From positions 10,083 to 74,082 of the IMG/VR virus record IMGVR_UViG_3300017791_000194: 64,000 nt of DNA. One strand, 5' to 3'. Every line of letters starts with the position of its first letter. Position 1 is the first letter of the stretch. The translations under genes and the position numbers were made by a program. Positions 2,701 through 53,716 of this stretch are shown piece after piece. The notes under the pieces were generated by a model, which ran no database searches, was not told where the DNA came from, and saw nothing but the letters and a program-made list of their open reading frames with translations. The DNA comes from a virus. Its lineage: Duplodnaviria; Caudoviricetes.

Positions 2701-2795
2701 TTCGCACACCCACACCCGGAGGTACGACATGAGTTTCCGTACTGGAGTCATCGCGTGGGCTGGCGCATAGGCTCGGCCCAAACTGGCAAATCCCC

Positions 2796-8956: not shown

Positions 8957-9066
8957 GAGGCTGCGGCGATGATGCCGCAGCCTCCCATGCCACGCCTTGC
9001 CAAGCCAAGGCACGCCGAGCCAAACCATGCCGAGCCACGGCTAGCCATGCCTAGCCACGCCACGGC
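8957..9066 (-). ncRNA. GGY-NN array 1 (16 units) plus 3' hairpin; putative guide RNA
   Basis: Perfect 5-nt register 8985-9066; hairpin gaggctgcggc/gccgcagcctc 8957-8984; TACGCT on - strand at 9071-9076. Confidence 0.8.
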
Positions 9067-9090: not shown

Positions 9091-9732
9091 ATGAGCACCA
9101 CCGACATCGAGAACGGCAGAGAGCTGACCGCCCTCGATCCCGTCAGCAACGACGGCGAACCAATCATCAAGTTTCAGGAGCCCTTCGTGGCGCGAGTCAC
9201 GATCCAGGGCGTGAGCGCGATCTTGTTTCACAGATGGAGCAACGAAGCGGTCGCTGCCAAGGCCGCCGCTGCGAAGAACAGCAAGGCGAAGAAGTCAGAC
9301 GACGTCGAGTCGTACTTGTATCGCGCCGACAACGGCAACATCGGCATCCCCGGTGAGTACCTGCGGCGCTCGATCATCACCGCTGCGAAGTTCAAGCAGG
9401 ACCCTCGCTCGCCACGGAAGTCGGCGATGGACCTGTACCAGGCGAGCATCATCAGCCTGACCGACCTTGCCGATACCGGCGCCAAGGAGCCCGACTACAT
9501 CGACCGCCGCCGGGTGACCGTGCAGCGATCTGGTGTGACGCGGGAGCGACCGGCGCTGCGGGCTGGCTGGACGGTCACGTTCGATCTGCTCTGCCAGTCT
9601 CCCGAGTACATCTCGCCTCAAGACCTTCTTGACACGATCACTCAGGCTGGCCGACTGGTCGGGATGGCTGACTTCCGCCCGAGCTTCGGCCGCTATCAGG
9701 TGACCCGGTTCGAGGTCACGCCCGCGGCATGA
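9091..9732 (+). CDS. vipr: stand-alone RAMP/Cas7-like protein (Vipr-like effector)
   Basis: N-terminal beta strand (RVTIQG), IPGEYLRRSI resembling the Cas7/Csm3 IPGSSLKG motif, C-terminal Gly loop GRLVGMADFRPSFGRY; adjacent GGY-NN array; no cas1/cas3/cas10 in window. Family name from recollection. Confidence 0.75.
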   Translation: MSTTDIENGRELTALDPVSNDGEPIIKFQEPFVARVTIQGVSAILFHRWSNEAVAAKAAAAKNSKAKKSDDVESYLYRADNGNIGIPGEYLRRSIITAAKFKQDPRSPRKSAMDLYQASIISLTDLADTGAKEPDYIDRRRVTVQRSGVTRERPALRAGWTVTFDLLCQSPEYISPQDLLDTITQAGRLVGMADFRPSFGRYQVTRFEVTPAA

Positions 9733-13437: not shown

Positions 13438-14376
13438 ATGGCCACGGCAACGAAGACCCGGGTCAATCCCCTGCCTGATACCCCCCCGCCGCCGGAGAAC
13501 CCACCGCGACCGGAGATGACTCCCGAAGAGGGGCGTGCGGTGTTCGAGGAGGCGAAGCGGATCTTCGAGCCCGAGTCGGTCGATGGCATCTACACCGATG
13601 CCAAGGGCGAGCCGCTCTCGCTCGTCAGCCGGATCGCGAAGATCACCGCCAGCCTGCCCGAGGTCAAGCCGGAGGGCGAGAACCAGCACTTCAAGTACAA
13701 GTTCGTCACCGACAAGCAAGTCCTGGGGCTGATCCGGCCAAAGCTGGCCAAGCAGCACATCATCATCGTGCCGGACACCGTCACCGAGCAGGAGCCGATC
13801 AACCAGGAGACGCAGCGCGGCGGACGCTCGATGCTCACTCGTCTGCACGTTGTCTTCCGGGTCATTGATGGCCTGAGCGGCGATACGTTCACGGGTGAGG
13901 CCGTGGGCTACGGCGACGACTCCGGCGACAAGGGCGCCAACAAGGCGTACACCGCGGCGCTCAAGAACTTCCTGATCAAGCTGTTCATGCTCGGCGGTGC
14001 CGATCGCGACATTGAGGACGACCCCGAAACGGACAAGCGCGCCTCTGCCCGCGAGCGCGCCGTGGCGCCAGTCCAGGCGGTTGAGGTCAAGGAGACGATC
14101 GTTGAGAGCGTCGCCCGGGGCGGCCGCTCCAGCACTGCCACGCTGGCCCAGGTCCAGGCCGTCAGTCGGCTGGTGGCGTCGCTGGGCCTCACGCCACAAC
14201 GGCTGGCTGGAGCCATCGAGATCATCCTCGGCAAGCCCGACCTGGAGTTTCGCAACTTTGGCGACGCCAAGCTGTTCCTCGAAGCTCTGTCGGGCGAGGA
14301 GATCGGTCAGGTCATCGAGTCGCTGAGCAACGACGAGGAGGCTCAGGTCGGCGAGGAGGCCGGGCCGGATGCCTGA
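13438..14376 (+). CDS. ERF-family ssDNA annealing protein
   Basis: GYGDDSGDKGANKAYTAALKNFL ERF-type motif; follows the exonuclease. Confidence 0.8.
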   Translation: MATATKTRVNPLPDTPPPPENPPRPEMTPEEGRAVFEEAKRIFEPESVDGIYTDAKGEPLSLVSRIAKITASLPEVKPEGENQHFKYKFVTDKQVLGLIRPKLAKQHIIIVPDTVTEQEPINQETQRGGRSMLTRLHVVFRVIDGLSGDTFTGEAVGYGDDSGDKGANKAYTAALKNFLIKLFMLGGADRDIEDDPETDKRASARERAVAPVQAVEVKETIVESVARGGRSSTATLAQVQAVSRLVASLGLTPQRLAGAIEIILGKPDLEFRNFGDAKLFLEALSGEEIGQVIESLSNDEEAQVGEEAGPDA

Positions 14377-18849: not shown

Positions 18850-19284
18850 ATGGACGCGACCGCGCAGATGCTCACCCAGTCGGAGCGCCTGCTCAAGCAC
18901 TTCCGTGCAGAGTTCGAGCGCGAGATCCCGATCCGCATCCACAGTCGCGACACAGCCGACGACGGAGCGCCGCAATGGCACCCCGAGTTCGCCCGCTGGT
19001 TGACCGCGAAGGAGTCCGACACCAACAGCTACATCACCAACGGCGAGCATCGGCTCCGGACAAGGCGTGCGATGCGCAAGCTGCGCGGCACCTCGATTCG
19101 GGGCTTCGAGGTAACCTGGCGAGTCTTCGGTGGCGAACGTGTGGAGGACACCGCCCGATGGCTCAACGACCGCGCCGAGCGCAACGCACTGCCGCTCCCG
19201 CCAGGGCGAACGACCCACTACCGAACGAAGGACGCGCTGGCCATCCTGTACGCCTCACTGCTCTTCATGGAGTGGGCGTACTAG
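18850..19284 (+). CDS. hypothetical protein, possible late-gene regulator; candidate homolog of the array 8/9 targets
   Basis: ORF at the end of the early arm; function inferred from position only. Confidence 0.65.
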   Translation: MDATAQMLTQSERLLKHFRAEFEREIPIRIHSRDTADDGAPQWHPEFARWLTAKESDTNSYITNGEHRLRTRRAMRKLRGTSIRGFEVTWRVFGGERVEDTARWLNDRAERNALPLPPGRTTHYRTKDALAILYASLLFMEWAY

Positions 19285-20300: not shown

Positions 20301-20492
20301 ATGGGCGTCGACAAGCAATCCAAGAAGGTCAAGAGGGCAACCCTCTCGGCCAAGCCGCGCTACGGGGGCGACCCGTACGTGGACCGTCACGGAGTGTCAA
20401 CCGAAAATCATCTTCAGCTCTGGCGTCGCCTGGTGGCGAACGGACCCGTGATGCACGGGCCTCCGGGCCCACCGCGACCCCACAAGAGCTGA
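20301..20492 (+). CDS. small basic protein (63 aa); homolog of the array 10 target
   Basis: Array 10 NNs match codons RHGVSTENH in frame. Confidence 0.65.
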   Translation: MGVDKQSKKVKRATLSAKPRYGGDPYVDRHGVSTENHLQLWRRLVANGPVMHGPPGPPRPHKS

Positions 20493-20567
20493 ACCACGCC
20501 ACGCCATGCCTGGGCTTGCCTCGCCGTGCCGAGCCATGGCCCACCGTGCCCGGCCTGGCCTCGCCAA
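20493..20567 (-). ncRNA. GGY-NN array 10 (15 units)
   Basis: Perfect register; TATGAT on - strand at 20575-20580. Confidence 0.8.
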
Positions 20568-20581
20568 GATGTTCATCATAG

Positions 20582-20657
20582 TGCCGGGTGGCCAAGTAGG
20601 TAAGGCACCGCGCTCTGAACGCGGCAATCGCTGGTTCGAGTCCAGCCCCGGCAACCA
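20582..20657 (+). tRNA. tRNA-Gln (CTG)
   Basis: tgccggg/cccggca acceptor, ccgcg-ctCTGaa-cgcgg, GGTTCGAG T-loop, encoded CCA. Confidence 0.93.
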
Positions 20658-20795
20658 ATCAACATGGCGGCAGACGGGATGTCCGCGGCAGTCCCGCCAA
20701 CCAGACAGAGACGGTGAGACCGGACCCGGTTCCGCCCGGGCGAGCACTCTGCCGATCGAAGGACCGAGCCCAGGGTCGTGGGCAGCCGTCTCCAT

Positions 20796-20883
20796 GGCAT
20801 AGGGAAGCGCTGGGGTCAGCGCGCTGGCTGGTGAGTGCCTCGACAGCCAGAGGTCTGGGTTCGAGTCCCGGCCCTGTGCCGCC
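20796..20883 (+). tRNA. tRNA-like element with a 17-nt expanded anticodon loop
   Basis: ggcataggg/ccctgtgcc acceptor, D-like arm, ctggc/gccag stem, GGTTCGAG T-arm; no clean CCA. Confidence 0.5.
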
Positions 20884-20886
20884 TTC

Positions 20887-20962
20887 GCCGACGTAGCTCA
20901 GTGGACAGAGCGGCTGGTTTCTACCCAGCATGTCGCGGGTTCGACTCCTGCCGTCGGCGCCA
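20887..20962 (+). tRNA. tRNA-Arg (TCT)
   Basis: gccgacg/cgtcggc acceptor, gctgg-ttTCTac-ccagc, CCA. Confidence 0.93.
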
Positions 20963-20965
20963 TCG

Positions 20966-21042
20966 GGGCGGCTAGCTCAGTTGGTCAGAGCATCTGGTCG
21001 ACATCCAGAAGGCCGCTGGTTCAAGTCCAGCGCCGCCCACCA
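20966..21042 (+). tRNA. tRNA-Val (GAC), with C33
   Basis: gggcggc/gccgccc acceptor, tctgg-tcGACat-ccaga, CCA. Confidence 0.88.
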
Positions 21043-21435: not shown

Positions 21436-21550
21436 GGCGCGGCTAGGTTGGGCTAGCCGTGGCTGGGCATGGTGCGGCGTGGCTGGGCAGGGCATGGCTA
21501 GGTGTGGCCCGGTCAGGCTGGGCGTCTTCGAGCACGGACGAGTTCCGTGC
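21436..21550 (+). ncRNA. GGY-NN array 11 (18 units) plus 3' hairpin
   Basis: Perfect register 21436-21525; gcacgga-cgagt-tccgtgc at 21532-21550. Confidence 0.8.
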
Positions 21551-42568: not shown

Positions 42569-43819
42569 TTAGCTCCTCAGAACTTCAAGGAAGTCGCGGG
42601 AGTAGATGCCCTCCAGATCGGAGAGATCACTCTGTGCCGCGTCGCGGACTACAGCCGCGCGTGGGCCGAGCGGAAGCTCGGCAAGCTTTGCCACGATGGC
42701 CTTGGTGCTGGAGATTGCCTCCGCAGCCTCGGACATCGCCTTGTCACGCTGCTGCTCTGCGGCAGCCTTGGCAGCCTTGATCGAGGCCAGCTCAGCCGTG
42801 AGCCTCTCAACCAAATCGCCAAGCATCGCGAACGCGGACGTGACTTCCGCGTCCATGCCGACCACTGCCTCCTGCGCCTGGGCGACCGTCTCGCTGGCCG
42901 AGTTGGTCACGTCGTCGCTGGGGGGCTCGCTCTGGGGAGCTGCCTGGGTCTCGGGGTCCACTGACGCCGCCACCACTTCTGGCTCAGCGTCCTTGTGGTA
43001 GCCGTTGTCACATCCCGTTGCACTCTTGCCCTTGCCACAGCTCGGGCAGGAGTCAGCGTCTGTGATTTCGGGGTCGGGAGTTGGGGCGACGATCTCGTCG
43101 TCGCTCTGGGGGAAGGTGAACTGGAGCAGGTTGTTGCTGGTGTTCGCCGAGGTCGTAGTCATTGGCACGTAGCCGATGGTCTGTGTGACCACCGGCGGGA
43201 GCGCCTCAACTGCCTCGGGCTCGATCGAGGCGGGGGCCTCGAAGTAGCTCTTGCGAGCGCTATCGACCCAGCTCCGGGGGTTCGCCGGAATGGCGACGAT
43301 CGAGGTCTCCAGGAGTTCGAGGTGCTCGATGATCAGGCGCTTGGTCTTCTTGTCGACCTTGGCGCCGCCTTCGGGGATCATGGCGCCGATGGACAGGCCG
43401 AGCTTGGTGCCCTTGCGGATGGCCTTCCAGGTCTTGACCGCGCGATCGTTCTCTTCGTTGATGATGATCGACATCCGGAGGTCGTGAACCGGGTCGCCGG
43501 TCTTGGTCTGTGCGACCGAACGGGCGAGCACCGCTGCCTCGACGGAGCCGAAGACATCCTCGGGAACCTCGTACTTGTGGTTGCCAAAGATGGTCAGGTT
43601 GTTGTTGGCCGCAGTCTCCATGTCGAGCAGGCCAGACTCGGTGATCTCATCACCGTGAAGGTCCTTGATCGTGGACGATGCGGTGCCCGAGAGGCGCATC
43701 TGCTTGCCGTCCGTGCTGACGCTTGCGGTCAGCGGCGCAGGCAGGAACTCATTGTTCTCAGCGTCGAACGCTCGGGTGTAGATCTTGAACTTGATCGGGG
43801 TTTCGTTGTAATCAAGCAC
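42569..43819 (-). CDS. HK97-type prohead protease fused to an acidic scaffold-like region
   Basis: SGTASST..DL.GD.I, H....FG, GLSIG, LLETSIVAIPANP. Confidence 0.85.
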   Translation of the reverse strand: MLDYNETPIKFKIYTRAFDAENNEFLPAPLTASVSTDGKQMRLSGTASSTIKDLHGDEITESGLLDMETAANNNLTIFGNHKYEVPEDVFGSVEAAVLARSVAQTKTGDPVHDLRMSIIINEENDRAVKTWKAIRKGTKLGLSIGAMIPEGGAKVDKKTKRLIIEHLELLETSIVAIPANPRSWVDSARKSYFEAPASIEPEAVEALPPVVTQTIGYVPMTTTSANTSNNLLQFTFPQSDDEIVAPTPDPEITDADSCPSCGKGKSATGCDNGYHKDAEPEVVAASVDPETQAAPQSEPPSDDVTNSASETVAQAQEAVVGMDAEVTSAFAMLGDLVERLTAELASIKAAKAAAEQQRDKAMSEAAEAISSTKAIVAKLAELPLGPRAAVVRDAAQSDLSDLEGIYSRDFLEVLRS

Positions 43820-45092
43820 TGACGGGAACCTCCTCAGCGGGATTGCTGGCAGACGCCAGCGCCCTGATGTACTCGTCGAACTTCGCTGCGGCGAAGTCCC
43901 AGGAGAAGTTGGCGCGCACGTGAGCAACACCCTTCTCGCCGAGATCGCGACGCAGCCCGGACGAGCTGTAGAGACGCTCGATCGCTTCGGTAAAGCCAGC
44001 GACGTCGGGCATCCAGAGGTCCTCGCCCGACGGGACGGTGACCATCACACCTGACGGCTCAACAAGAGATCCGCCAGGACCGACCACTTCAGGAATCGCA
44101 GAGACGTTCTGGGCGACGACCGGGATGCCGCACGCGGCAGCCTCTGAGAGCGTCATCCCGAAGCCCTCTCCGCGGCTCGTCGATACGAAGATGTCGAAGG
44201 CGTTGTACAGCGCATTCATGTCTTGCTGCGACCAGCCGACGAAGGAGTTGTACAGACCCGGCTGATGGACTCGCTGCTTGATCGCGGCGGCGTCGAGGAA
44301 CCTGGTGAACATCAGCGGGATGTTGACCCCGGAGACATTCTCGGTTGCCGCGCAGTGAGCGTAGAACTCGATGTCGCTGTACTTCCTCATCAGCGGCCCG
44401 ATCGTTCGGATCAGAGCGCCCCAGTCCTTGCGGCCAGAGTTCTTATCGACTCGACCCACAACGAATGACTTGGGATCGAAGCCGAAGGCCCGTTTGGCGT
44501 CCCGCTTGTTCCTGATCACGGAGCCATTCGACATCGTGATCGGCTTCTCGGACACCGGCCAGAACTCGTTGGTGTCGACGCCGTGGTACACGAGCTTTGA
44601 GCCGGGGTAGTGGTCTTGGCCCCAGCGGCTCATGGCCACGACGTTGGTGATCTGAGGGATCTTCTCGATCCACGATGGCGGGAGGTTGGTCCCGTCGCAC
44701 GGGATGTAGCTGATGATCGGGCGGTACCGAAGGAGATAGCGCTCTTTGTCGTAGTTGTTCTCGAACAGCAGTTGCAACAGCACCTGCGGGTCGGTCAGCA
44801 TGAACACGACATCGAGCCCGAGCCCCGGCGTCTCGCCGAGCATCCCGAGTAGCTCCAGCACGCGCGTCTGGCCGTGGATGTCATCGGCCAGGAACTTCGT
44901 CGGGTTGTAGAGCTTGAGATAGGTGGGCTTGTCGGGTTCCAGGATCGAGGGGAAGTAGTCGCCCTGATAGTTCACCGCGAGGACGTGGATGTCGTGGCCG
45001 TAGTCACGCACCAATCGCTCGCCGATGGCATGCATCACGTTCCCGAAGCCGGTATGACACCCGGCGTCGGTCATGGCGAAGATCCTGGCCAA
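43812..45092 (-). CDS. GT4 (GT-B) glycosyltransferase
   Basis: TGFG, HGVD, STSRGEGFG..LSEA.ACG.PVV motifs. Confidence 0.9.
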   Translation of the reverse strand: MARIFAMTDAGCHTGFGNVMHAIGERLVRDYGHDIHVLAVNYQGDYFPSILEPDKPTYLKLYNPTKFLADDIHGQTRVLELLGMLGETPGLGLDVVFMLTDPQVLLQLLFENNYDKERYLLRYRPIISYIPCDGTNLPPSWIEKIPQITNVVAMSRWGQDHYPGSKLVYHGVDTNEFWPVSEKPITMSNGSVIRNKRDAKRAFGFDPKSFVVGRVDKNSGRKDWGALIRTIGPLMRKYSDIEFYAHCAATENVSGVNIPLMFTRFLDAAAIKQRVHQPGLYNSFVGWSQQDMNALYNAFDIFVSTSRGEGFGMTLSEAAACGIPVVAQNVSAIPEVVGPGGSLVEPSGVMVTVPSGEDLWMPDVAGFTEAIERLYSSSGLRRDLGEKGVAHVRANFSWDFAAAKFDEYIRALASASNPAEEVPVSA

Positions 45093-45458: not shown

Positions 45459-48400
45459 CTAGACAATCACGGCGTCGACTGTGAACGAACTACCACGAGG
45501 CAGAAAGGTCGTCGCTTCGATCACGGTCGCGCTGAGGGTCGCCGCAGACATCCTCGCCGACAGCGTTGCCGCGGCGAAGGGGCCGCTGACGAGTTGCGCT
45601 TCAACGTGACCGAAATGCGCAACCCGAACGACGGCCGATGCCGTGAATGACCCAGCCTGGGTCCGCCGGATAACTGCCTGGGCAGTGAGGGCGGCGACCA
45701 TGGCCGGTGCCGAGATGATGGCGTCGGCTACGAAGACGCCTGAATTGATCTGGGCGAGATACGCATCGAGCGTCGCTGCACCTGATCGGGGAGACAGGAT
45801 CACCGCACTGGCGGTAATCCCGTCCGTTCGGGTTGCCAGGATGTCTGCGTTGGCAGCAATCGAGGCTGGCGACGTCTTCTCGATGACCGCAGCAGTTGTC
45901 AGAGACCCTGTTGCAGTAACGCGACGGATCGCGTCGATCGCGAATGTAGCAGACCGAGTGCTGAAAAGAACAGCCTGTGCGTTAAAAGACCCGGGAACTG
46001 CACGCAAGAGCACCGCGTCGGCCGTGACAGAGCCAGAAACCGCCTGGCTCACGCGCGCATCAGTTGTAAGCGAACCGGTCGCCGTGATCTTCGTGACAGC
46101 GTCCGCAGTGACTGCGCCGGTGGCCTGACGCAAGATCAGTGCGTCACTAGTGAACGATCCCGTCTGCGTTCGGCGGACGACTGCATCAACTGTTGCCTGG
46201 CCCTGTGCAGTCGCGCGCTGGGTTGCGTCTGCGGTCAGGCTGCCGCTCTGTGTCCGCAGGACGACTGCGTCGCCTGAGAAGGCGAAGGTGCCGACACCCT
46301 GGACAAAGGCGTCGGCGGTGAACGTCTCGGTCTGGGTGCGCCGAATGACGGCGTCTTCGGCGACGCGGCCAGGAACGAAGGCGTCAGCAGTGACGGCGCC
46401 AGTCTGAACTCGGCGGACAACTGCATCGGCGAACAGATGTCCGGCGATGAAGCTATCCGCCGAGAACGCGCCGCTCTGGCTGCGTGAGATTACCGCGTCG
46501 GCGGTGGCAGATCCAGTCTGGGCTCGCAGCAGAGTTGCATCAGCGATGACAGCGCCCGTGCGCTCACGCTGGAGGATCGCGTCGGCGTTGAACGTGCCAG
46601 ACTGGCTGCGGGTGACGACCGCGTCTGCCGTGGCATTCCCAGTGAGCGTGGCCTTGTTGGTCGCGTCCGCCGTGAATGTCGCAGACCTTGTAGCTGCAAG
46701 AACTGCATCCGCACTGAACGAGGCGCTGGATGTGCGGAAAACGACAGCGTCGGCTGTGACCGCGCCTGACTGCGTCCGCCGGGAAACCGCGTCAGCGGTG
46801 ATGGCCCCGGCGGATGTAGTCCGCAGGGCCGCATCCGCCGTGAGTGCGCCCGTCTGCGTGCGCAGGATGACGGCATCGCCCGAGAAGGCAAAGATGCCAA
46901 CCCCGGCCACGAAGGCGTCTGCGGTGAACGATCCCGGCTGCGTTCGCAACAGCGTCGCGTCAGCTCGGAACGAGGCGTGGATGAATGCGTTGGCCGTGAA
47001 GCTCCCGGTCTGTCCCGCCCGGAAAATGACCGCATCTGCGATGAAGCCGATCTCGTGGGTGGTGACGATCGGTTGGCCGACCTCGAACTCGAACCACGTC
47101 ACCCGGAGGCGCGTCTGCGGACCACCGCCCGTGGTCGCCCCGACGAAGCGGATCTTGAGCCGGGTGTAGTCAACGATCGAGTCGGCTTCGGCGCCAGTGA
47201 GCGTGTACGCAGTCGTGATGGCGGTGTCTTGCGTCGGGCTGACCTGGAAGGACGCGACGTCGCCGCCCGCCTGGAAGAGGGTGGCCGTGATGGTGGCTGC
47301 GCGGCTGCCCGTCTTCAGGTGGCGCAGACGCAGGATGTGACCATCCGACCGAAGCGGGTCCTCGACTGGCTGGACGTTGCCCTCGTACGTCGCCGCGGTC
47401 GGATTGTCGTCGGTCCGGATGTAGTCGTTGTCGTCGGCGCTCGGCTCGTCAATCGACTGGAAGATGTCGATCGTGCCGCCGTTCTGGTCGTACCAGATCG
47501 AGTTCAGCGTGTCATTGATGACCTTGCCACGCTGCTTGCCGGTGACCTTGGCGTCAGCCGTGAACGAGCCAGACTGCGTGCGCAGGATGACGGCATTGGC
47601 GGTGAACGAGCTACTGATGGTTGCCCTGAGAGCCGCGTCGGCTGTGAGGACCGCCGAAGTTGGCCGTACCACCACGGCATTGGCTGTGAACGAACCTGTC
47701 TGGATTTGGCGGACAACTGCATCGGCGGACAAATGCCCGGCGATGAAGCTATCGGCGGAGAACGTGCCAGACTGTGTGCGGGTGGTAACCGCGTCGGCGG
47801 TGACCGAGCCCGTCTGCGTGCGCTTGATGACGGCGTTGGCCGAGAACGAACTGCTGATCGTCTTCTTGGTGACCGCATCAGCAACGAGGAACGTCGTGGA
47901 CGGTTGCACCGCCACGGTGGCCGCTGTCGGGAAGTACGGGCCGTCAACCCACGAGAATGCTCCGGGGTCTTCGGATGCAGCCGCGAGCTGCCGCTCGGCG
48001 GAGCCGATGCTCGACTCTCCGAACAGCGGGGCCATGCCGTTGCTGTAGCTCGACGGGTAGCCCGTGATGTTCCCTGACCAGTTGCCCCCGCCGCCCCCTG
48101 TGGTGTACGCCGACGAGAGCGCGATCCAGAGCGTGTTGGCCGTGCCCCACGACGGAGTCAGGCTCGGCGGATCGGCGCTGCCGACCCACCCGGCGACCTC
48201 CATGGAGGAGGCGGCGCGGCACAAGTAGCTGACCCAGGAAGTCGACGTAGCGAGCGCGCCGAAGTCGACGGTTACCGAGCCTGTGGCAATGTCGCCGGAA
48301 TCGAGAACCTTGTAGCGAGCCTCCTCGACATGCTGGCCCGGAGAGGAGAGCCCCAGGAGGGATACCCAGCCGGACGGCCAGGTGTTAGACCCCCCGCCGA

Positions 48401-50159
48401 AACGGTGGGAGTACGCGATGAGGAGCAGGTCACCAACCTGCGCTGACCCAGAGATTGGGACTGTGGTGAAGGTCTGGGTGTTGTTGCCCCCGCTGGAACG
48501 AGCGACGATGTTGACTGTGCCGGGCAGGCCAGTCTGCGTGCGCAGGATGACGGCATCGGCGGTGAACGAACCGGTAGCGGTGAGTCGTCTGGTGGCATCG
48601 GCGGTGAACGTCCCGGTCTGGGTCTTCTTGATAGCCGCGTCGGCGGCGAAGTGGCCCGCGATGAACGCATCACCGGTGAATGAGCCGCTCTGCGTCCTGA
48701 AGACAACGGCATTCGCTGTGAGTGAACTGGAGACCGTTGCCTTGGTTACCGCATCAGCAGTGAACGATGACCCGATCGTCTTCTTGATTACTGCGTTGGC
48801 GGTGAAGCTGCCATTGATTGTTGTTGCTCCCGCGAAGATGTAGGCGTCAGCAGTGAAGCCGGGCGGGGCGACCTGAACACGGAAGATAAGGTCGGCGCTG
48901 ATGACTTCCGACCATGCGCTGCTGAAATACCGAGAGGCAGTTCCGCCGCCATAGCTCGTGTTGGTATTGACCGTGACGTAGTTGTCCGTCGCGTTCAACG
49001 AGCCCGATCGCTTGAACACCAGCCAGTACTTCGTGCCGCTCGCGACCTGCGCAGAGCAGGCGTCGGTGCGCAGCCCCGGCGTGGTGCTCAGTGACGCGCC
49101 AGAGACGGTGGCGAGCGTCCCGATGACCGTTTCGCTTGGCGCATTGGATGCATCGGTTTGTAGTTCAACGACAACGTTATCGGCGGGCGCGCCGTTCTTG
49201 CCGATGTCCCAGGCGATCTCGATCAGTTCGCCAGTAGCTGGGGCGAGGAACGATTGAGCGCGGCGTTCAGGGTTCGTGCTGGTCTCAGCATCGCTGCCGA
49301 AGTTCGAGGTGATTACCCCCGCCAAGACAGTTTGCTCGTACTTCTCGCCCGGCCTGACCGTACGCAAGAGCACAGCATCAGCGGTGAAGCCACCGGTGAT
49401 CGTCTTCTTGATGACAGCATCGGCGGTAAAAGCGGAGGAGATCGTTGCCTTGATGACCGCGTCAGCGGTGAGCGTGTTGCGGACGTTCGAGCGCAGGGCA
49501 AACGTCCACTGAAGGCCATCATCGGTTGAGGCGCCGCCCAGGGTCCACGCACCCGGATTGGAGGTCGTGCCCGCCGCGACATCGAGCAGCCACGCGAAGC
49601 CCGAGCTACCGTCCGTGCCACCCGTCTCGTCGTATCGAGCCGCCGTGTCGCCGGAGTAGGTCGCGGGGACCGTGATCGAGCCGCCGTAGTCGTTGTTCTT
49701 CGCGAAGACGGTGGCAACCACGTCCTTGTCGAGGATGGTCGCCGCCGACAATGCAGGCGGATCTGGGCTCTGGGTGTTGCTGAATGTCGCCGGGTTGGCG
49801 GCGGACGTACGCTCGAACGGGTCGGCGGCCGAGCCGTTGACGTCGCGGAACACGACTGTGTAGAAGCCATCGGTGTTGTTGGTCGAGCTGGTGGCTGTCC
49901 ACGCGAAGGTCGTGTCACCGGCGACAAGCGTGCGGTAGCCGATGAACAGATGGCCGAAGCCCGCGCTGGAGAAGTCAACCTTCTGGGTGACCGTGCCGGG
50001 TTCGGTGAAGGTTCTGCCCGACTCGCGGCTGGCCCAGACGAAGATCGCGAAGTCACCTGGCAACCAATTAGCAGGCAGCGCCCAGCTGCCAGATGTCAGG
50101 TTATTCCCGGAGTTTCCGAAGCTCGCCCCGACAAACGTGACGCCACGCACAGCAGCCAT
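45459..50159 (-). CDS. giant Ala/Thr/Ser-rich virion protein with dozens of 13-aa FTADA repeats
   Basis: Repeat G(S/T)FTADAV(I/L)xRTQ(T/S), interrupted by globular domains. Confidence 0.85.
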   Translation of the reverse strand: MAAVRGVTFVGASFGNSGNNLTSGSWALPANWLPGDFAIFVWASRESGRTFTEPGTVTQKVDFSSAGFGHLFIGYRTLVAGDTTFAWTATSSTNNTDGFYTVVFRDVNGSAADPFERTSAANPATFSNTQSPDPPALSAATILDKDVVATVFAKNNDYGGSITVPATYSGDTAARYDETGGTDGSSGFAWLLDVAAGTTSNPGAWTLGGASTDDGLQWTFALRSNVRNTLTADAVIKATISSAFTADAVIKKTITGGFTADAVLLRTVRPGEKYEQTVLAGVITSNFGSDAETSTNPERRAQSFLAPATGELIEIAWDIGKNGAPADNVVVELQTDASNAPSETVIGTLATVSGASLSTTPGLRTDACSAQVASGTKYWLVFKRSGSLNATDNYVTVNTNTSYGGGTASRYFSSAWSEVISADLIFRVQVAPPGFTADAYIFAGATTINGSFTANAVIKKTIGSSFTADAVTKATVSSSLTANAVVFRTQSGSFTGDAFIAGHFAADAAIKKTQTGTFTADATRRLTATGSFTADAVILRTQTGLPGTVNIVARSSGGNNTQTFTTVPISGSAQVGDLLLIAYSHRFGGGSNTWPSGWVSLLGLSSPGQHVEEARYKVLDSGDIATGSVTVDFGALATSTSWVSYLCRAASSMEVAGWVGSADPPSLTPSWGTANTLWIALSSAYTTGGGGGNWSGNITGYPSSYSNGMAPLFGESSIGSAERQLAAASEDPGAFSWVDGPYFPTAATVAVQPSTTFLVADAVTKKTISSSFSANAVIKRTQTGSVTADAVTTRTQSGTFSADSFIAGHLSADAVVRQIQTGSFTANAVVVRPTSAVLTADAALRATISSSFTANAVILRTQSGSFTADAKVTGKQRGKVINDTLNSIWYDQNGGTIDIFQSIDEPSADDNDYIRTDDNPTAATYEGNVQPVEDPLRSDGHILRLRHLKTGSRAATITATLFQAGGDVASFQVSPTQDTAITTAYTLTGAEADSIVDYTRLKIRFVGATTGGGPQTRLRVTWFEFEVGQPIVTTHEIGFIADAVIFRAGQTGSFTANAFIHASFRADATLLRTQPGSFTADAFVAGVGIFAFSGDAVILRTQTGALTADAALRTTSAGAITADAVSRRTQSGAVTADAVVFRTSSASFSADAVLAATRSATFTADATNKATLTGNATADAVVTRSQSGTFNADAILQRERTGAVIADATLLRAQTGSATADAVISRSQSGAFSADSFIAGHLFADAVVRRVQTGAVTADAFVPGRVAEDAVIRRTQTETFTADAFVQGVGTFAFSGDAVVLRTQSGSLTADATQRATAQGQATVDAVVRRTQTGSFTSDALILRQATGAVTADAVTKITATGSLTTDARVSQAVSGSVTADAVLLRAVPGSFNAQAVLFSTRSATFAIDAIRRVTATGSLTTAAVIEKTSPASIAANADILATRTDGITASAVILSPRSGAATLDAYLAQINSGVFVADAIISAPAMVAALTAQAVIRRTQAGSFTASAVVRVAHFGHVEAQLVSGPFAAATLSARMSAATLSATVIEATTFLPRGSSFTVDAVIV

Positions 50160-50362: not shown

Positions 50363-50833
50363 TCATGGAGCGGTGTCCGGGGAGGGGTGCGAGGTTGAGC
50401 CAGCCGGGTAGCTAGCGAGGCCTGCGCGCCCCTCCCGAGAGACCGCTCGAAGACGACGCCATTCACGAATCACCTCTGACTGGCCGAAGCGAGCCACCAC
50501 GGCGTCGATCGTCTCGCCACTCGGGACTTGTTCGCCCCGGCAGATGCGCCAGACCGCGCTGTGATCCACGGCTAGCTCACGACCCATCTGATGCGCCGAT
50601 GCGCGCGACATCAGCGAGCGAATCACATCGGTGAACAAGATCTCGGGTCGATCATCGTTCTGCCGCGCGCGGCGCAATGCTGAACGCTGACGTTCGCGTT
50701 CGCGGTACTCGGGGTGGTCCGCCTTCCAGGCCTTGGACCGAGCGCTCCAGAATTCTGGGTCGTCGCTGTGCTGTTTACCGTGACCGCCGCGGGAGCCCAC
50801 ACCGGTCTGGACGCTGCGGGCTGACCGCTTCAA
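50363..50833 (-). CDS. XRE-like HTH protein
   Basis: HQMGRELAVDHSAVWRICRGEQVPS. Confidence 0.6.
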   Translation of the reverse strand: MKRSARSVQTGVGSRGGHGKQHSDDPEFWSARSKAWKADHPEYRERERQRSALRRARQNDDRPEILFTDVIRSLMSRASAHQMGRELAVDHSAVWRICRGEQVPSGETIDAVVARFGQSEVIREWRRLRAVSREGRAGLASYPAGSTSHPSPDTAP

Positions 50834-50836
50834 ATC

Positions 50837-51220
50837 TCACCGTGGCCCTCGTGCTTTGACCTGGAGGATGCCGAGCTGGTCGACGTCATCGCCGCCGACC
50901 ACAACGCCGTCGGGCATCACCCACAGACGCTGTTCGATCCCGTTGACAAGCTTCTTGCCGATGCCGTAGGCGATGATCTCGTTGCTGCCGCCAGATCCAG
51001 CGATGCCGACATGACGAGCCGTGTAGTACGGCTGATCACCAGGGTTGACCCGGACGGTCAGCACGATGGCTGAGTCACTCTTGCGGCGTAGCAGCCACCA
51101 GCCGGGGCGCCGCAGCCAAGATGAGTACGTGGCATGCCACTGATGCTCTTCAACATCAACAAACAGAACAGCTTGATCATCATCAACGATCATCAGATCG
51201 TAGGGCGTTGATTCGTTCAT
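50837..51220 (-). CDS. hypothetical protein; homolog of the array 12 target
   Basis: ATG 51220; the ORF-track extension is array translation. Confidence 0.7.
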   Translation of the reverse strand: MNESTPYDLMIVDDDQAVLFVDVEEHQWHATYSSWLRRPGWWLLRRKSDSAIVLTVRVNPGDQPYYTARHVGIAGSGGSNEIIAYGIGKKLVNGIEQRLWVMPDGVVVGGDDVDQLGILQVKARGPR

Positions 51221-51223
51221 ACT

Positions 51224-51323
51224 GCCCTGCCTTGGCACGGCGAGTCTGGGCATGGCCGGGTCGGGCCTGGCGGGGTTGGGCTGGGCATGGCGTGGGAGGA
51301 GCTGTTCATCCGAGCAGCTCCTC
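51224..51323 (+). ncRNA. GGY-NN array 12 (14 units) plus 3' hairpin
   Basis: Register 51224-51293; gaggagctg/cagctcctc at 51296-51323; CATACT at 51218. Confidence 0.8.
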
Positions 51324-52121
51324 AATCCGCTCTCGCGTCAAGGTCGGCAGGCCCATCGAGTCGTTGATCCTCTGGCGCTCGGCGCTGACTTCGGGATCGC
51401 GGTCACGTACTTCCTGGAGGAAGTGGCGCCTGCGGACTTCGATCTCGGAAACGTGACCAATCTCGATTCGGGTATCGACGAAGATGCGCGCGCCCACGGC
51501 CTTTGCGTCCTGGCAAAACTGAAGGTCCTCCCCAAAGACGCCCGTCCAGCGGAAGAACTCCGTGGGGTTCATCCCGATCCGCACGCCGTATGGCGGCATT
51601 GGGCTCCCGATGATCATCTCGAAGACACGCTTGTGGATGAGCACGAAGGCCATCCCCGTCGCGTCGACCTCGACGATGTCTTCGGTCCAGTCTTCGAGGT
51701 AGTTGTAGGCGCCCGAGGTCGGGTTCTCCCGCATGAACAGCGTGGGCTGGTACGGTGCCGATCGGCGGAAGCACAGGGCGCCCATGATGTCGGCGTCGAC
51801 CTCGTCGCGGGCTGCGACCAGGCGCCCGATGTCTTTGGGATACCAGACCATGTCGTCGTCGATGAACATCAGCCAGTCGCCGATCATCCGCTGCACCGCG
51901 CCGTTGCGCTGGAGCGGCAGGATGTTGCCCTGGATGATGTTCCGGTTGACGTAGCGGCCTGGCGGTATCCAGGTCCAGTCAGTGTGGGTCAGGGCGGTGG
52001 CCGTGGCCGCGTTGACGGTGTCACGAACCGGGATCGAGATCGTCCCGACACAGGCGGGATCGTCGCCTTCAGGGAAGTTTCCCAGGAGACGCAGCTCAGA
52101 GAACTGCACCTGGCTCTTCAT
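51306..52121 (-). CDS. GT2-like glycosyltransferase
   Basis: QRN, FIDDD, VDATGMAFVL, GEDLQFC. Confidence 0.85.
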   Translation of the reverse strand: MKSQVQFSELRLLGNFPEGDDPACVGTISIPVRDTVNAATATALTHTDWTWIPPGRYVNRNIIQGNILPLQRNGAVQRMIGDWLMFIDDDMVWYPKDIGRLVAARDEVDADIMGALCFRRSAPYQPTLFMRENPTSGAYNYLEDWTEDIVEVDATGMAFVLIHKRVFEMIIGSPMPPYGVRIGMNPTEFFRWTGVFGEDLQFCQDAKAVGARIFVDTRIEIGHVSEIEVRRRHFLQEVRDRDPEVSAERQRINDSMGLPTLTRERIEELLG

Positions 52122-52159
52122 CTGTCCTCCAGGAGTGACCTTGAGAGGTTGTCAGCTGG

Positions 52160-52378
52160 CTAGCGCTTGCCGCCGCCAAAGCCAAAGATTGGCCCGCCAG
52201 TGAAGAACCAGATCAACCCGACGAGAACGCCGATGGCCCAGCCCCACTGGACGAAGAAGTTGCCCGCGATCTGAGCGATCGGCGCGGGCAACGACTTGAT
52301 GATCGGCCCGAGCAGGTAGACGAGCAGCGCCCCGACGATGATCGCGATGACGACTGCAACAACGATGGCCTCAATCAT
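52160..52378 (-). CDS. two-TM membrane protein
   Basis: ggag SD; ATGA overlap. Confidence 0.65.
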   Translation of the reverse strand: MIEAIVVAVVIAIIVGALLVYLLGPIIKSLPAPIAQIAGNFFVQWGWAIGVLVGLIWFFTGGPIFGFGGGKR

Positions 52379-52560
52379 GCTGGCTCCTTTGGTGCGCGCG
52401 CCTGGATACGCAGGCATGTCTCACACGACTTCTCATCCGCAGGGAAGACATCGAGCGTTTCCCCGTGGGCGGTTTTGCCACACACCGTGACATAGGTATC
52501 GAACGCCCGGGTGGGCGTCCGGACCGCGTGCCATGAGCGGATCTTGACCCAGCCCCACAT
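52375..52560 (-). CDS. small Zn-binding protein
   Basis: WHA...CG...CETC. Confidence 0.55.
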   Translation of the reverse strand: MWGWVKIRSWHAVRTPTRAFDTYVTVCGKTAHGETLDVFPADEKSCETCLRIQARAPKEPA

Positions 52561-52561
52561 G

Positions 52562-52888
52562 TCAGGCCTGGGCGGTGACGGTCACGGACGCTGTCGCGAC
52601 GCTCGAATCATCCGAGGCGTCGTTGAGCCGGATCGTCCAGCTGCCATCATCGGGGAACACATAGTTGTTGAACTCATGGGTTCCGTCGTCATTGGTGCCG
52701 AAGACGTAGCTTCGACCCATCTCTGTGCCGCCCAGCTCGAAGGTGAGGTAGTAGTTCACCGCCGGGCTGGCCGGGTAGTTGTTGGCGTCGTAACCGGTGT
52801 CGGTGTTATCGGGCGCATCGTCCACGGTGACTCGGCAGGCATCGGTGATTGCCTCCGGGGAGGCGGGGACGCAGGTGATGGTTGCCAT
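52562..52888 (-). CDS. Ig-like virion protein
   Basis: Beta-rich; G.W.I.L...V.VT terminus. Confidence 0.55.
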   Translation of the reverse strand: MATITCVPASPEAITDACRVTVDDAPDNTDTGYDANNYPASPAVNYYLTFELGGTEMGRSYVFGTNDDGTHEFNNYVFPDDGSWTIRLNDASDDSSVATASVTVTAQA

Positions 52889-53716
52889 CTAGATCTCCTC
52901 TGTAACTGTGACCCGAGCTGGGTCGAACGGCAGGATGACCTCCGCTTTGAAGAGCGGGGCATCATCGTCGGCCCGCAGATACGGGCACTTTCGACAGGCA
53001 GTGAACGCGACGTCGTTGATGACCGGAGCCCTCGTCAGCAGGTGCTCCGCGCAGAGGTTGGTGACGGCCGGGCTTGGTTGAGGTGGAGATTTCAACGGAT
53101 GCCAGGCGAACGGTGGCTCCCAGATGAAGACCCGGTCCTGCCCCCGTGCCTGGAGAGCGCGGTAGCCCAGATTCTGGTCCTCCGAGCCATGCCGACCCAT
53201 GAACAGCATGTCGAAGCCATGCAGGGCGATGAGGAAGTTGCGATGAGCCCCGAACATCCCGGCGTAGCTGCTCCAGTGGCCGTGCAGTGCGTTCGGGGGA
53301 TGCTCTCGCTCCGTGCCCTCCTCGGGTGCCATGTGCAGTAGATCTGCCACGCCATGGGTCTCGAAGTCGATGAACCGGTGATGGCCCCAGAAGATCATGT
53401 CGAGGACCAGACGTTGCTCGGCCGCAGCCAGCATGCCAGCCGGAGCTACCTGGTCATCGTCCTGAAACACCAGCCAGTCGGCCTTCGCCGTCCAGATGCC
53501 GACGTTGCGGCGCAGGACGACGTCGTTCTTGCCGTAGCCGTAGAAGTCTGAGTCGAAGTGCAGTACGCGCACCGGGTAGGGCAGGCCCTTGGGCAGCTCG
53601 ACCTCGTTCGATACGACGGTGACGAGGTCTGGCGGCCGGGTCTGATAGGCCAGCGACGCGAGGAGCTTGGTGGGCTCGCGTAGAGCGGGAACGATGACCT
53701 CAAGCGAGGGCGACAT
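52889..53716 (-). CDS. GT2 glycosyltransferase
   Basis: VIVP, RRNVG, FQDDD, GFD..F...GSEDQ.LG.R. Confidence 0.85.
   Translation of the reverse strand: MSPSLEVIVPALREPTKLLASLAYQTRPPDLVTVVSNEVELPKGLPYPVRVLHFDSDFYGYGKNDVVLRRNVGIWTAKADWLVFQDDDQVAPAGMLAAAEQRLVLDMIFWGHHRFIDFETHGVADLLHMAPEEGTEREHPPNALHGHWSSYAGMFGAHRNFLIALHGFDMLFMGRHGSEDQNLGYRALQARGQDRVFIWEPPFAWHPLKSPPQPSPAVTNLCAEHLLTRAPVINDVAFTACRKCPYLRADDDAPLFKAEVILPFDPARVTVTEEI

Follow-up and report, generated by a model that had tools for sequence, protein, structure and literature searches.

Results

A repeat array at a gene junction in the late arm of the phage

The window, by which we mean the whole stretch of 64,000 nucleotides analyzed here, covers bases 10083-74082 of one 74,082-bp phage record (G+C, 64%). 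Array 12 sits within the minus-strand late arm, to which the prohead protease and major capsid protein genes also belong, and its cassette is wedged between the stop codon of a glycosyltransferase gene and a gene for a protein of 127 residues (Table 1). The gap that holds the array, from the glycosyltransferase stop (51306-51308) to the start of the 127-residue gene (51220), measures 85 bp. The block of sugar-modification genes in this arm and a GT4 gene at 43812-45092 suggest virion glycosylation. The 1566-residue protein encoded further along is made up mostly of 14- to 15-residue repeats of the type (S/T)G(S/A)(F/V)TADAV(I/V)x(R/K)T and is probably a fibre or decoration protein.

Table 1 Features of the locus and of the surrounding late arm (positions in the window)
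Feature	Position	Strand	Description
vipr	9091..9732	+	213 aa; phmmer match to PDB 36pp_D 'SUSP1 Vipr protein', E 1.6e-7, over residues 130-205 only
1566-aa repeat protein	45459-50159	-	Late arm
Helix-turn-helix protein	50363-50833	-	Late arm
127-aa gene	50837-51220	-	Late arm; homologs in related phages
Near-self site	51089..51124	-	Codons 33-44 of the 127-aa gene, SSWLRRPGWWLL; NNs on codon positions 1 and 2, skipped base at the wobble
Array 12, 5' leader	51218..51233	+	-10-like hexamer CATACT (51218-51223), then gccct and a first unit GCCTT; read from the sequence
Array 12, repeat tract	51234..51293	+	12 five-base GGY-NN units (11 GGY, one GTC)
Array 12, 3' tail	51294..51323	+	GGGag unit, then a 12-bp hairpin (51296-51323)
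Glycosyltransferase gene, family 2	51306..52121	-	Pfam PF00535 and PHROG glycosyltransferase matches
Sugar-modification gene block	51306-56759	-	CmcI-type methyltransferase, two NAD-dependent epimerases/dehydratases, family-2 glycosyltransferases; between portal and prohead protease/capsid genes
Portal	57681-59000	-	Late arm
Terminase large subunit	59236-60720	-	Late arm

The units of the tract read GGCac GGCga GTCtg GGCat GGCcg GGTcg GGCct GGCgg GGTtg GGCtg GGCat GGCgt, and the five-base phase runs through them unbroken, with no indels. The period is thus 5 nt, as against the 20- to 50-nt direct repeats and unique spacers of similar length by which a CRISPR array is recognized. The hairpin of the tail, whose 3' arm shares bases with the final codons and the stop codon (51306-51308) of the glycosyltransferase gene, is present in the centroid fold, and the full 100-nt RNA folds with z = -2.75. 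At the other end, the CATACT hexamer overlaps the start codon of the 127-residue gene on the opposite strand, and similar leaders of the form TAnnnT-N4-8-GCC(G/T)T precede the arrays at 8972, 10911, 12505, 19940, and 57066. Because a scan for a consensus sigma-70 promoter at Array 12 found none, the hexamer is taken here only as a putative leader or promoter element. Likewise, no U-tract terminator was found at Array 12 by a consensus terminator scan, and no Rfam family was matched by a search of the array.

This anatomy is that of VIPR, in which a RAMP protein, Vipr, is combined with vrRNAs whose run of GGY/NN units is followed by a structured 3' tail (bioRxiv 10.64898/2026.04.26.720920, 10.64898/2026.04.26.720927, 10.64898/2026.10.15.759431). 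The NN dinucleotides pair with double-stranded DNA such that every third target base is skipped, and natural targets are mostly coding sequences with the skips at wobble positions (10.64898/2026.04.26.720920). A vipr gene is present in the genome at a distance of 42 kb from Array 12, and its product also matches phrog_4652 (E 7e-21). The window holds 17 GGY-NN arrays, found in both orientations relative to the genes; the unit grammar of Array 12 is the same as that of the 16 others, and the grammar of leader and tail is shared. The array that adjoins vipr ends in GGCat, GGGag, and a hairpin, and Array 12 ends alike (GGCat/gt, GGGag, hairpin). Elsewhere in the window, three tRNA genes stand in a row at 20582-21039 (+), with GGY-NN arrays on either side of them (20491-20565 and 21436-21525).

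The guide reads a near-match in the adjacent gene

Read with a one-base skip, the NNs of Array 12 (ac ga tg at cg cg ct gg tg tg at gt) spell T (D/E) W (I/M) R R L G W W (I/M) V. An earlier note on this DNA had proposed that ten of them match a segment inside the 127-residue gene at 16 of 20 nucleotides, with six of ten dinucleotides exact, and re-reading of the sequence bore out these figures. Units 3-12 (TG AT CG CG CT GG TG TG AT GT) fall in frame on codons 35-44, where the minus strand from 51118 down to 51089 reads TGG CTG CGG CGC CCC GGC TGG TGG CTG CTA, that is, W35 to L44 of the protein. The gene had been described as downstream of the array, which is right in the sense of the minus-strand operon only, as the guide RNA would be made from the opposite strand.

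The site lies ~130 nt from the guide and is the only one in the genome to reach 16/20 (both strands of 74,082 bp, ~148,000 positions); the runners-up are two sites at 15/20. The 10-unit window was picked after the fact, and the full 12-unit guide matches its own gene at 17/24 (0.71), a score tied with that of one other site, at 2737-2772 (+). The latter, which reaches 19/26 with 13 units and lies in frame with an ORF at 2446-2799, was judged to be background. When shuffled guides were compared within ±700 bp, P was 0.0004 for the 10-unit version and 0.003-0.007 for the 12- to 14-unit versions. Moreover, among the skip rules compared, the one-base skip alone gives an outstanding local match, whereas skips of 0, 2, or 3 bases give background. 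In a test against decoy windows, Arrays 1, 10, and 12 each outscored all ~270 windows locally.

The footprint takes in R37, W42, and L44, which are invariant or nearly invariant residues. Substitutions particular to the phage's own copy are found in three of the 12 codons of the footprint and in 24 of 125 codons gene-wide; since they are no denser in the footprint, specific selection for escape is unsupported. At the position of the Asp codon of most relatives, for which the guide NN is GA, the phage has Ser TCT (51122-51124, -), and its relative G001, the other phage with an array at this junction, has Ser AGT (L001 3091-3093). The two Ser codons belong to different codon families, each of which mismatches the guide GA at both bases. 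The presence of Ser from two codon families in both array-bearing phages is a suggestive hint at escape in these two sequences; taken together, these observations argue only weakly for active escape of the own allele.

Relatives' alleles fit the guide better than the phage's own copy

The 127-residue protein has 119 homologs in public metagenomes and no match in Pfam or PHROGs. Its AlphaFold2 model (mean pLDDT, 94.5) is beta-rich with a C-terminal helix, and Foldseek searches of PDB, BFVD, and VIA-wide with this model gave nothing convincing, the best match (Z 4.6) being to lectin-like beta-propeller blades. Because the code reads codon positions 1 and 2, the NN match can be computed from a protein sequence, except in the codon families of Leu, Arg, and Ser. 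The relatives were scored in this way from their proteins, with Arg taken to be encoded by CGN and Leu by CTN. In the published work, a VIPR target has an NN match of at least 80%, and own-contig matches lie below this value (bioRxiv 10.64898/2026.04.26.720920, 10.64898/2026.10.15.759431); the same cut-off was used for comparison here.

Seven of the 14 close relatives, which share 63-80% identity with the protein, match the guide at 20/24 (0.83) as inferred from protein (P0004, P0006, P0007, P0009, P0011, P0012, and P0014). They carry the allele ADWMRRPGWWLL or, in P0014 only, ADWMRRTGWWML. Another five of the 14, with single-residue variants, score 19/24 (0.79) by the same protein-based inference. 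The own footprint is the lowest of the 15-member clade: all 14 close relatives match the guide at least one base better (protein-inferred), and the own copy carries three more mismatches than the ADWMRRPGWWLL allele. The difference is also seen over units 2-10 (DWMRRPGWW), which match the relatives at 17/18 and the own copy at 14/18. Their sole mismatch to the relatives is at the Pro codon, with guide U opposite target G. The best relatives still show four single-base mismatches over the whole guide, one of them at this conserved Pro codon. G001 is the only close relative that was scored as DNA, at 18/24 = 0.75, and in the whole records of both G001 (18/24) and the syntenic genome G002 (17/24) the homologous site is the top DNA match of the guide.

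To what extent these matches exceed chance was assessed with two sets of controls. Against 118 homologs, the real 12-unit guide reaches 20/24, while none of 3000 shuffled guides exceeds 18/24; 97 twelve-unit windows taken from the other arrays reach at most 17 against the homolog family. The link of Array 12 to the family of the 127-residue gene is not due to chance.

The claim of the earlier note that Array 12 reads a variant of the adjacent gene is upheld in this form: the guide reads codons 33-44 with the wobble base skipped, at 20/24 in relatives versus 17/24 in the own copy. As its logic is the published one-base-skip code of VIPR (bioRxiv 10.64898/2026.04.26.720920), the reading is correct but not new. 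The note had further predicted which residues homologs would carry. Two of the predictions are borne out, with D/E in 72 of 119 homologs and M in 72 of 119 at positions where the own copy has S and L, and M is also found at the 11th unit in one close relative, P0014. The others are not, since no homolog replaces the conserved P by L, the L by V, or the A by T. The gapped pattern search that it had suggested found no instance of the exact 10-unit pattern in viral_contigs. Similarly, the exact 12-unit pattern is absent from genome_contigs, and no perfect target was found in the collections scanned. A pattern of the ADWMRRPGWWLL-type allele had one match in genome_contigs, in a Verrucomicrobiae MAG, which was set aside as a chance match because it lies in an unrelated protein. 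A phage collection gave no match by DNA or by protein, and a metagenome scan gave seven loci among the matches listed, with no new close relative among them.

The junction cassette is variable among relatives

The genome of G002 (72,154 bp, rated complete) showed neither a match to vipr nor any GGY-NN array with at least eight units, and in it the glycosyltransferase-like gene and the 127-residue homolog lie 2 nt apart (L004 2982-2989). Judged against this array-free genome, which offers a natural comparison, the Array 12 cassette is an 85-bp insertion.

G001 is a 25.6-kb fragment whose 127-residue homolog is 78% identical to that of the phage. At the same junction, it carries a cassette of 13 GGY-NN units at 19193-19257 (-) (= L001 2916-2980). 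The NNs of this cassette (aa ga ct ac ga gc cg at aa ga tg at aa) are wholly unlike those of Array 12, whereas the scaffold is kept and the tail hairpin is nearly identical. Between the two sequences, the hairpin of Array 12 is retained with one compensatory change of a G-C to an A-U pair and one change from A-U to G-U, and a search of viral_contigs with the tail pattern returned G001 only. For the G001 junction guide, no target was found in this genome, in G001, in G002, or among the 119 homologs. That it differs from Array 12 and matches no member of the family points to fast guide turnover and shows that adjacency of guide and target is not universal. A second G001 array at 13553-13622 (-) has a 3' flank, gacgagttaggtctcgtc...gttgaccgtctcc, that matches the flank of the window array at 57066-57165; the matching flanks suggest that cassette positions are conserved between G001 and this phage while the guides differ.

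The automatic gene calls P0001, P0002, and P0013 extend the N terminus of the protein through the array in antisense (51253-51325, -), with sequences that begin MPRLAVP... and MPRLAMPGRAKARLASPSLASP... The long extension of P0013 suggests that its 911-bp contig also bears an array at the junction.

Discussion

Array 12 has the anatomy of a vrRNA gene, the genome encodes a Vipr homolog, and the guide has a nonrandom match to one gene family, in which it fits the alleles of relatives better than the copy beside it. We consider it probable, if well short of certain, that Array 12 is a VIPR guide aimed at related phages and placed beside the phage's own, poorly matching allele.

Several other readings have to be weighed against this one. 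The guide may have matched the allele of an ancestor or rival at one time and drifted since, together with its targets, so that it silences nothing now. Such decay would explain why every sampled allele shows four to six single-base mismatches, why three collections hold no perfect target, and why the NNs at the same junction of G001 are quite different, as expected with rapid turnover. However, the array has kept its GGY scaffold (11 of 12 units) and its tail hairpin, both of which are conserved, nine consecutive units match the relatives at 17/18, and seven of the 14 close relatives exceed the published cut-off when scored from protein, which makes decay an unlikely account. Under self-regulation, Array 12 would be a genuine vrRNA that acts on the gene or late operon of the phage itself, and a match as incomplete as 0.71-0.80 would give weak, tunable repression or a means of timing. 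The own site is indeed best or joint-best in the genome and near the guide, its 10-unit window reaches exactly 0.80, and no mismatch tolerance is given in the VIPR preprints. The full guide, however, scores no better at the own site (0.71) than at the unrelated one (2737-2772), and shuffled guides also attain such a value. Furthermore, each of the 14 close relatives offers a better match than the own copy, and the published surveys contain no own-contig matches of 0.80 or above; we regard self-regulation as rather unlikely.

It is quite improbable that Array 12 is a real vrRNA with a different, unsampled target and resembles the neighboring gene by coincidence. The full guide is merely tied for the top score in its own genome, and the cassette at the same site in G001 has no identifiable target, as this idea would allow. 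Against it stand the 20/24 match to the family, which shuffled guides do not reach (at most 18 in 3000), the homologous site as the top match in three genomes, the codon frame of the match, and the behavior of Arrays 1 and 10, which also beat all neighboring decoy windows. Least credible of all, and very improbable in our view, is that there is no guide RNA here and that the tract is an N-terminal coding extension of the 127-residue gene or a DNA repeat with a protein-binding or structural role. No stop codon interrupts the minus-strand frame across the array, and it is within the array that the database gene call P0001 (138 aa) begins. Yet a repeat with a 5-nt period cannot be conserved as coding sequence, the arrays run with some genes and against others, and the genome encodes a Vipr homolog. 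Most homologs begin directly at an MSVPFDL-like N terminus and G002 lacks the tract, so the coding extension, missing from both, was ruled out. The idea of a TRAP-type triplet-plus-2-nt protein-binding site, or of a structural repeat rich in G, whose NN match would have arisen by chance, was dropped in view of the Vipr homolog and the family-wide statistics.

If Array 12 is a guide against related phages, as we favor, its action may be pictured as follows. A plus-strand vrRNA of ~95 nt, antisense to the late operon and with its 12 GGY-NN units capped by the 3' hairpin, would be expressed as a stand-alone RNA and loaded by the Vipr protein encoded 42 kb away. Vipr protomers would coat the guide at its GGY motifs and leave the 12 NN dinucleotides exposed to pair with double-stranded DNA in steps of two bases, with each third base passed over. 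The guide would thereby recognize codons 33-44 of the 127-residue family as they occur in the closest relatives (ADWMRRPGWWLL). Since the skipped bases lie on wobble positions, synonymous changes would not help a target to escape, and this codon-periodic reading over conserved codons fits the published idea of limited escape. In a co-infecting or resident relative, binding could block transcription of the late operon, which runs from the 127-residue gene to the fibre-like, prohead protease, and capsid genes. The own copy, which matches only at the background level of 17/24, should be spared, provided that silencing occurs at 0.83 but not at 0.71. We infer a purpose directed against rivals from this difference in fit.

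The VIPR system itself is already known from the 2026 preprints. Its type examples are those of the Escherichia phage SUSP1 and a Pseudomonas fulva prophage (10.64898/2026.04.26.720920), with structures described in 10.64898/2026.04.26.720927; the type systems have 9-16 units, and the SUSP1 filament was resolved with 12. The phage studied here resembles them in encoding a Vipr homolog, in a guide of 12 GGY/NN units as in the SUSP1 filament, in a structured 3' cap, and in a one-base-skip match within coding sequence with the skips at the wobble; the targets of the type systems are genes of competing phages. However, the guide does not flank vipr but is one of ~17 cassettes scattered at gene junctions, 42 kb from that gene. 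In addition, its tail is a simple hairpin, it lies directly beside the phage's own near-matching copy of the target, and its best natural match is only 0.83. Solo (orphan) vrRNAs are known in VIPR-null SUSP1-like phages and in F5 satellites (bioRxiv 10.64898/2026.10.15.759431). Array 12 is like these in being a stand-alone gene far from vipr, and its guide matches relatives better than its own locus, which would avoid autoimmunity. It is unlike them in that the phage has retained a vipr gene of its own and in the physical linkage of the guide to the allele that would be spared. The match, moreover, is to a late-arm gene, whereas solo vrRNAs target vipr, another vrRNA, a satellite recombinase, or host REP elements.

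A likeness to Class 1 CRISPR-Cas systems lies in the RAMP filament on a guide RNA, as in the crRNA-Cas7 filament, and in the periodic, thumb-mediated interruption of pairing described in the VIPR preprints. Unlike those systems, the phage lacks a repeat-spacer array and, as far as seen here, cas1/cas2 adaptation genes; pairing involves two of five guide bases rather than five of six, and the outcome is presumably silencing rather than cleavage.

In the marker exclusion of T-even phages, a homing endonuclease, which is a protein nuclease, cuts DNA and drives gene conversion. The arrangement at Array 12 is similar in that a weapon against a relative's allele is encoded beside the resistant allele and co-inherited with it. 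It differs in that the weapon would be an RNA guide, acting presumably through transcriptional silencing.

The cassette could be one half of a linked weapon-plus-immunity pair, in which a guide against a common late-gene allele was inserted beside the phage's own poorly matching allele; we hold this to be a real possibility, though somewhat less than an even chance. Because the guide adjoins the spared allele, recombination could not separate poison from antidote, and, if the reading is true, such a pair could spread through the phage population like an allele-exclusion or drive element. The placement rule at Arrays 1, 10, and 12 might also hint that guides are acquired from the neighboring gene.

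VIPR has so far been studied in enterobacterial and Pseudomonas phages, and the present genome extends it to a high-GC, 74-kb phage from environmental metagenomes. The pair of 36-bp sites with matches of 0.83 (relatives) and 0.71 (own) could be used to calibrate the mismatch tolerance of VIPR, for which the preprints give no value. The placement of a guide beside its own near-target is potentially new, as it is not stated in the VIPR preprints, and Array 12 together with other arrays of this genome supports it as a recurring one. This placement bears on how such phages avoid silencing themselves and on how their guides spread or arise.
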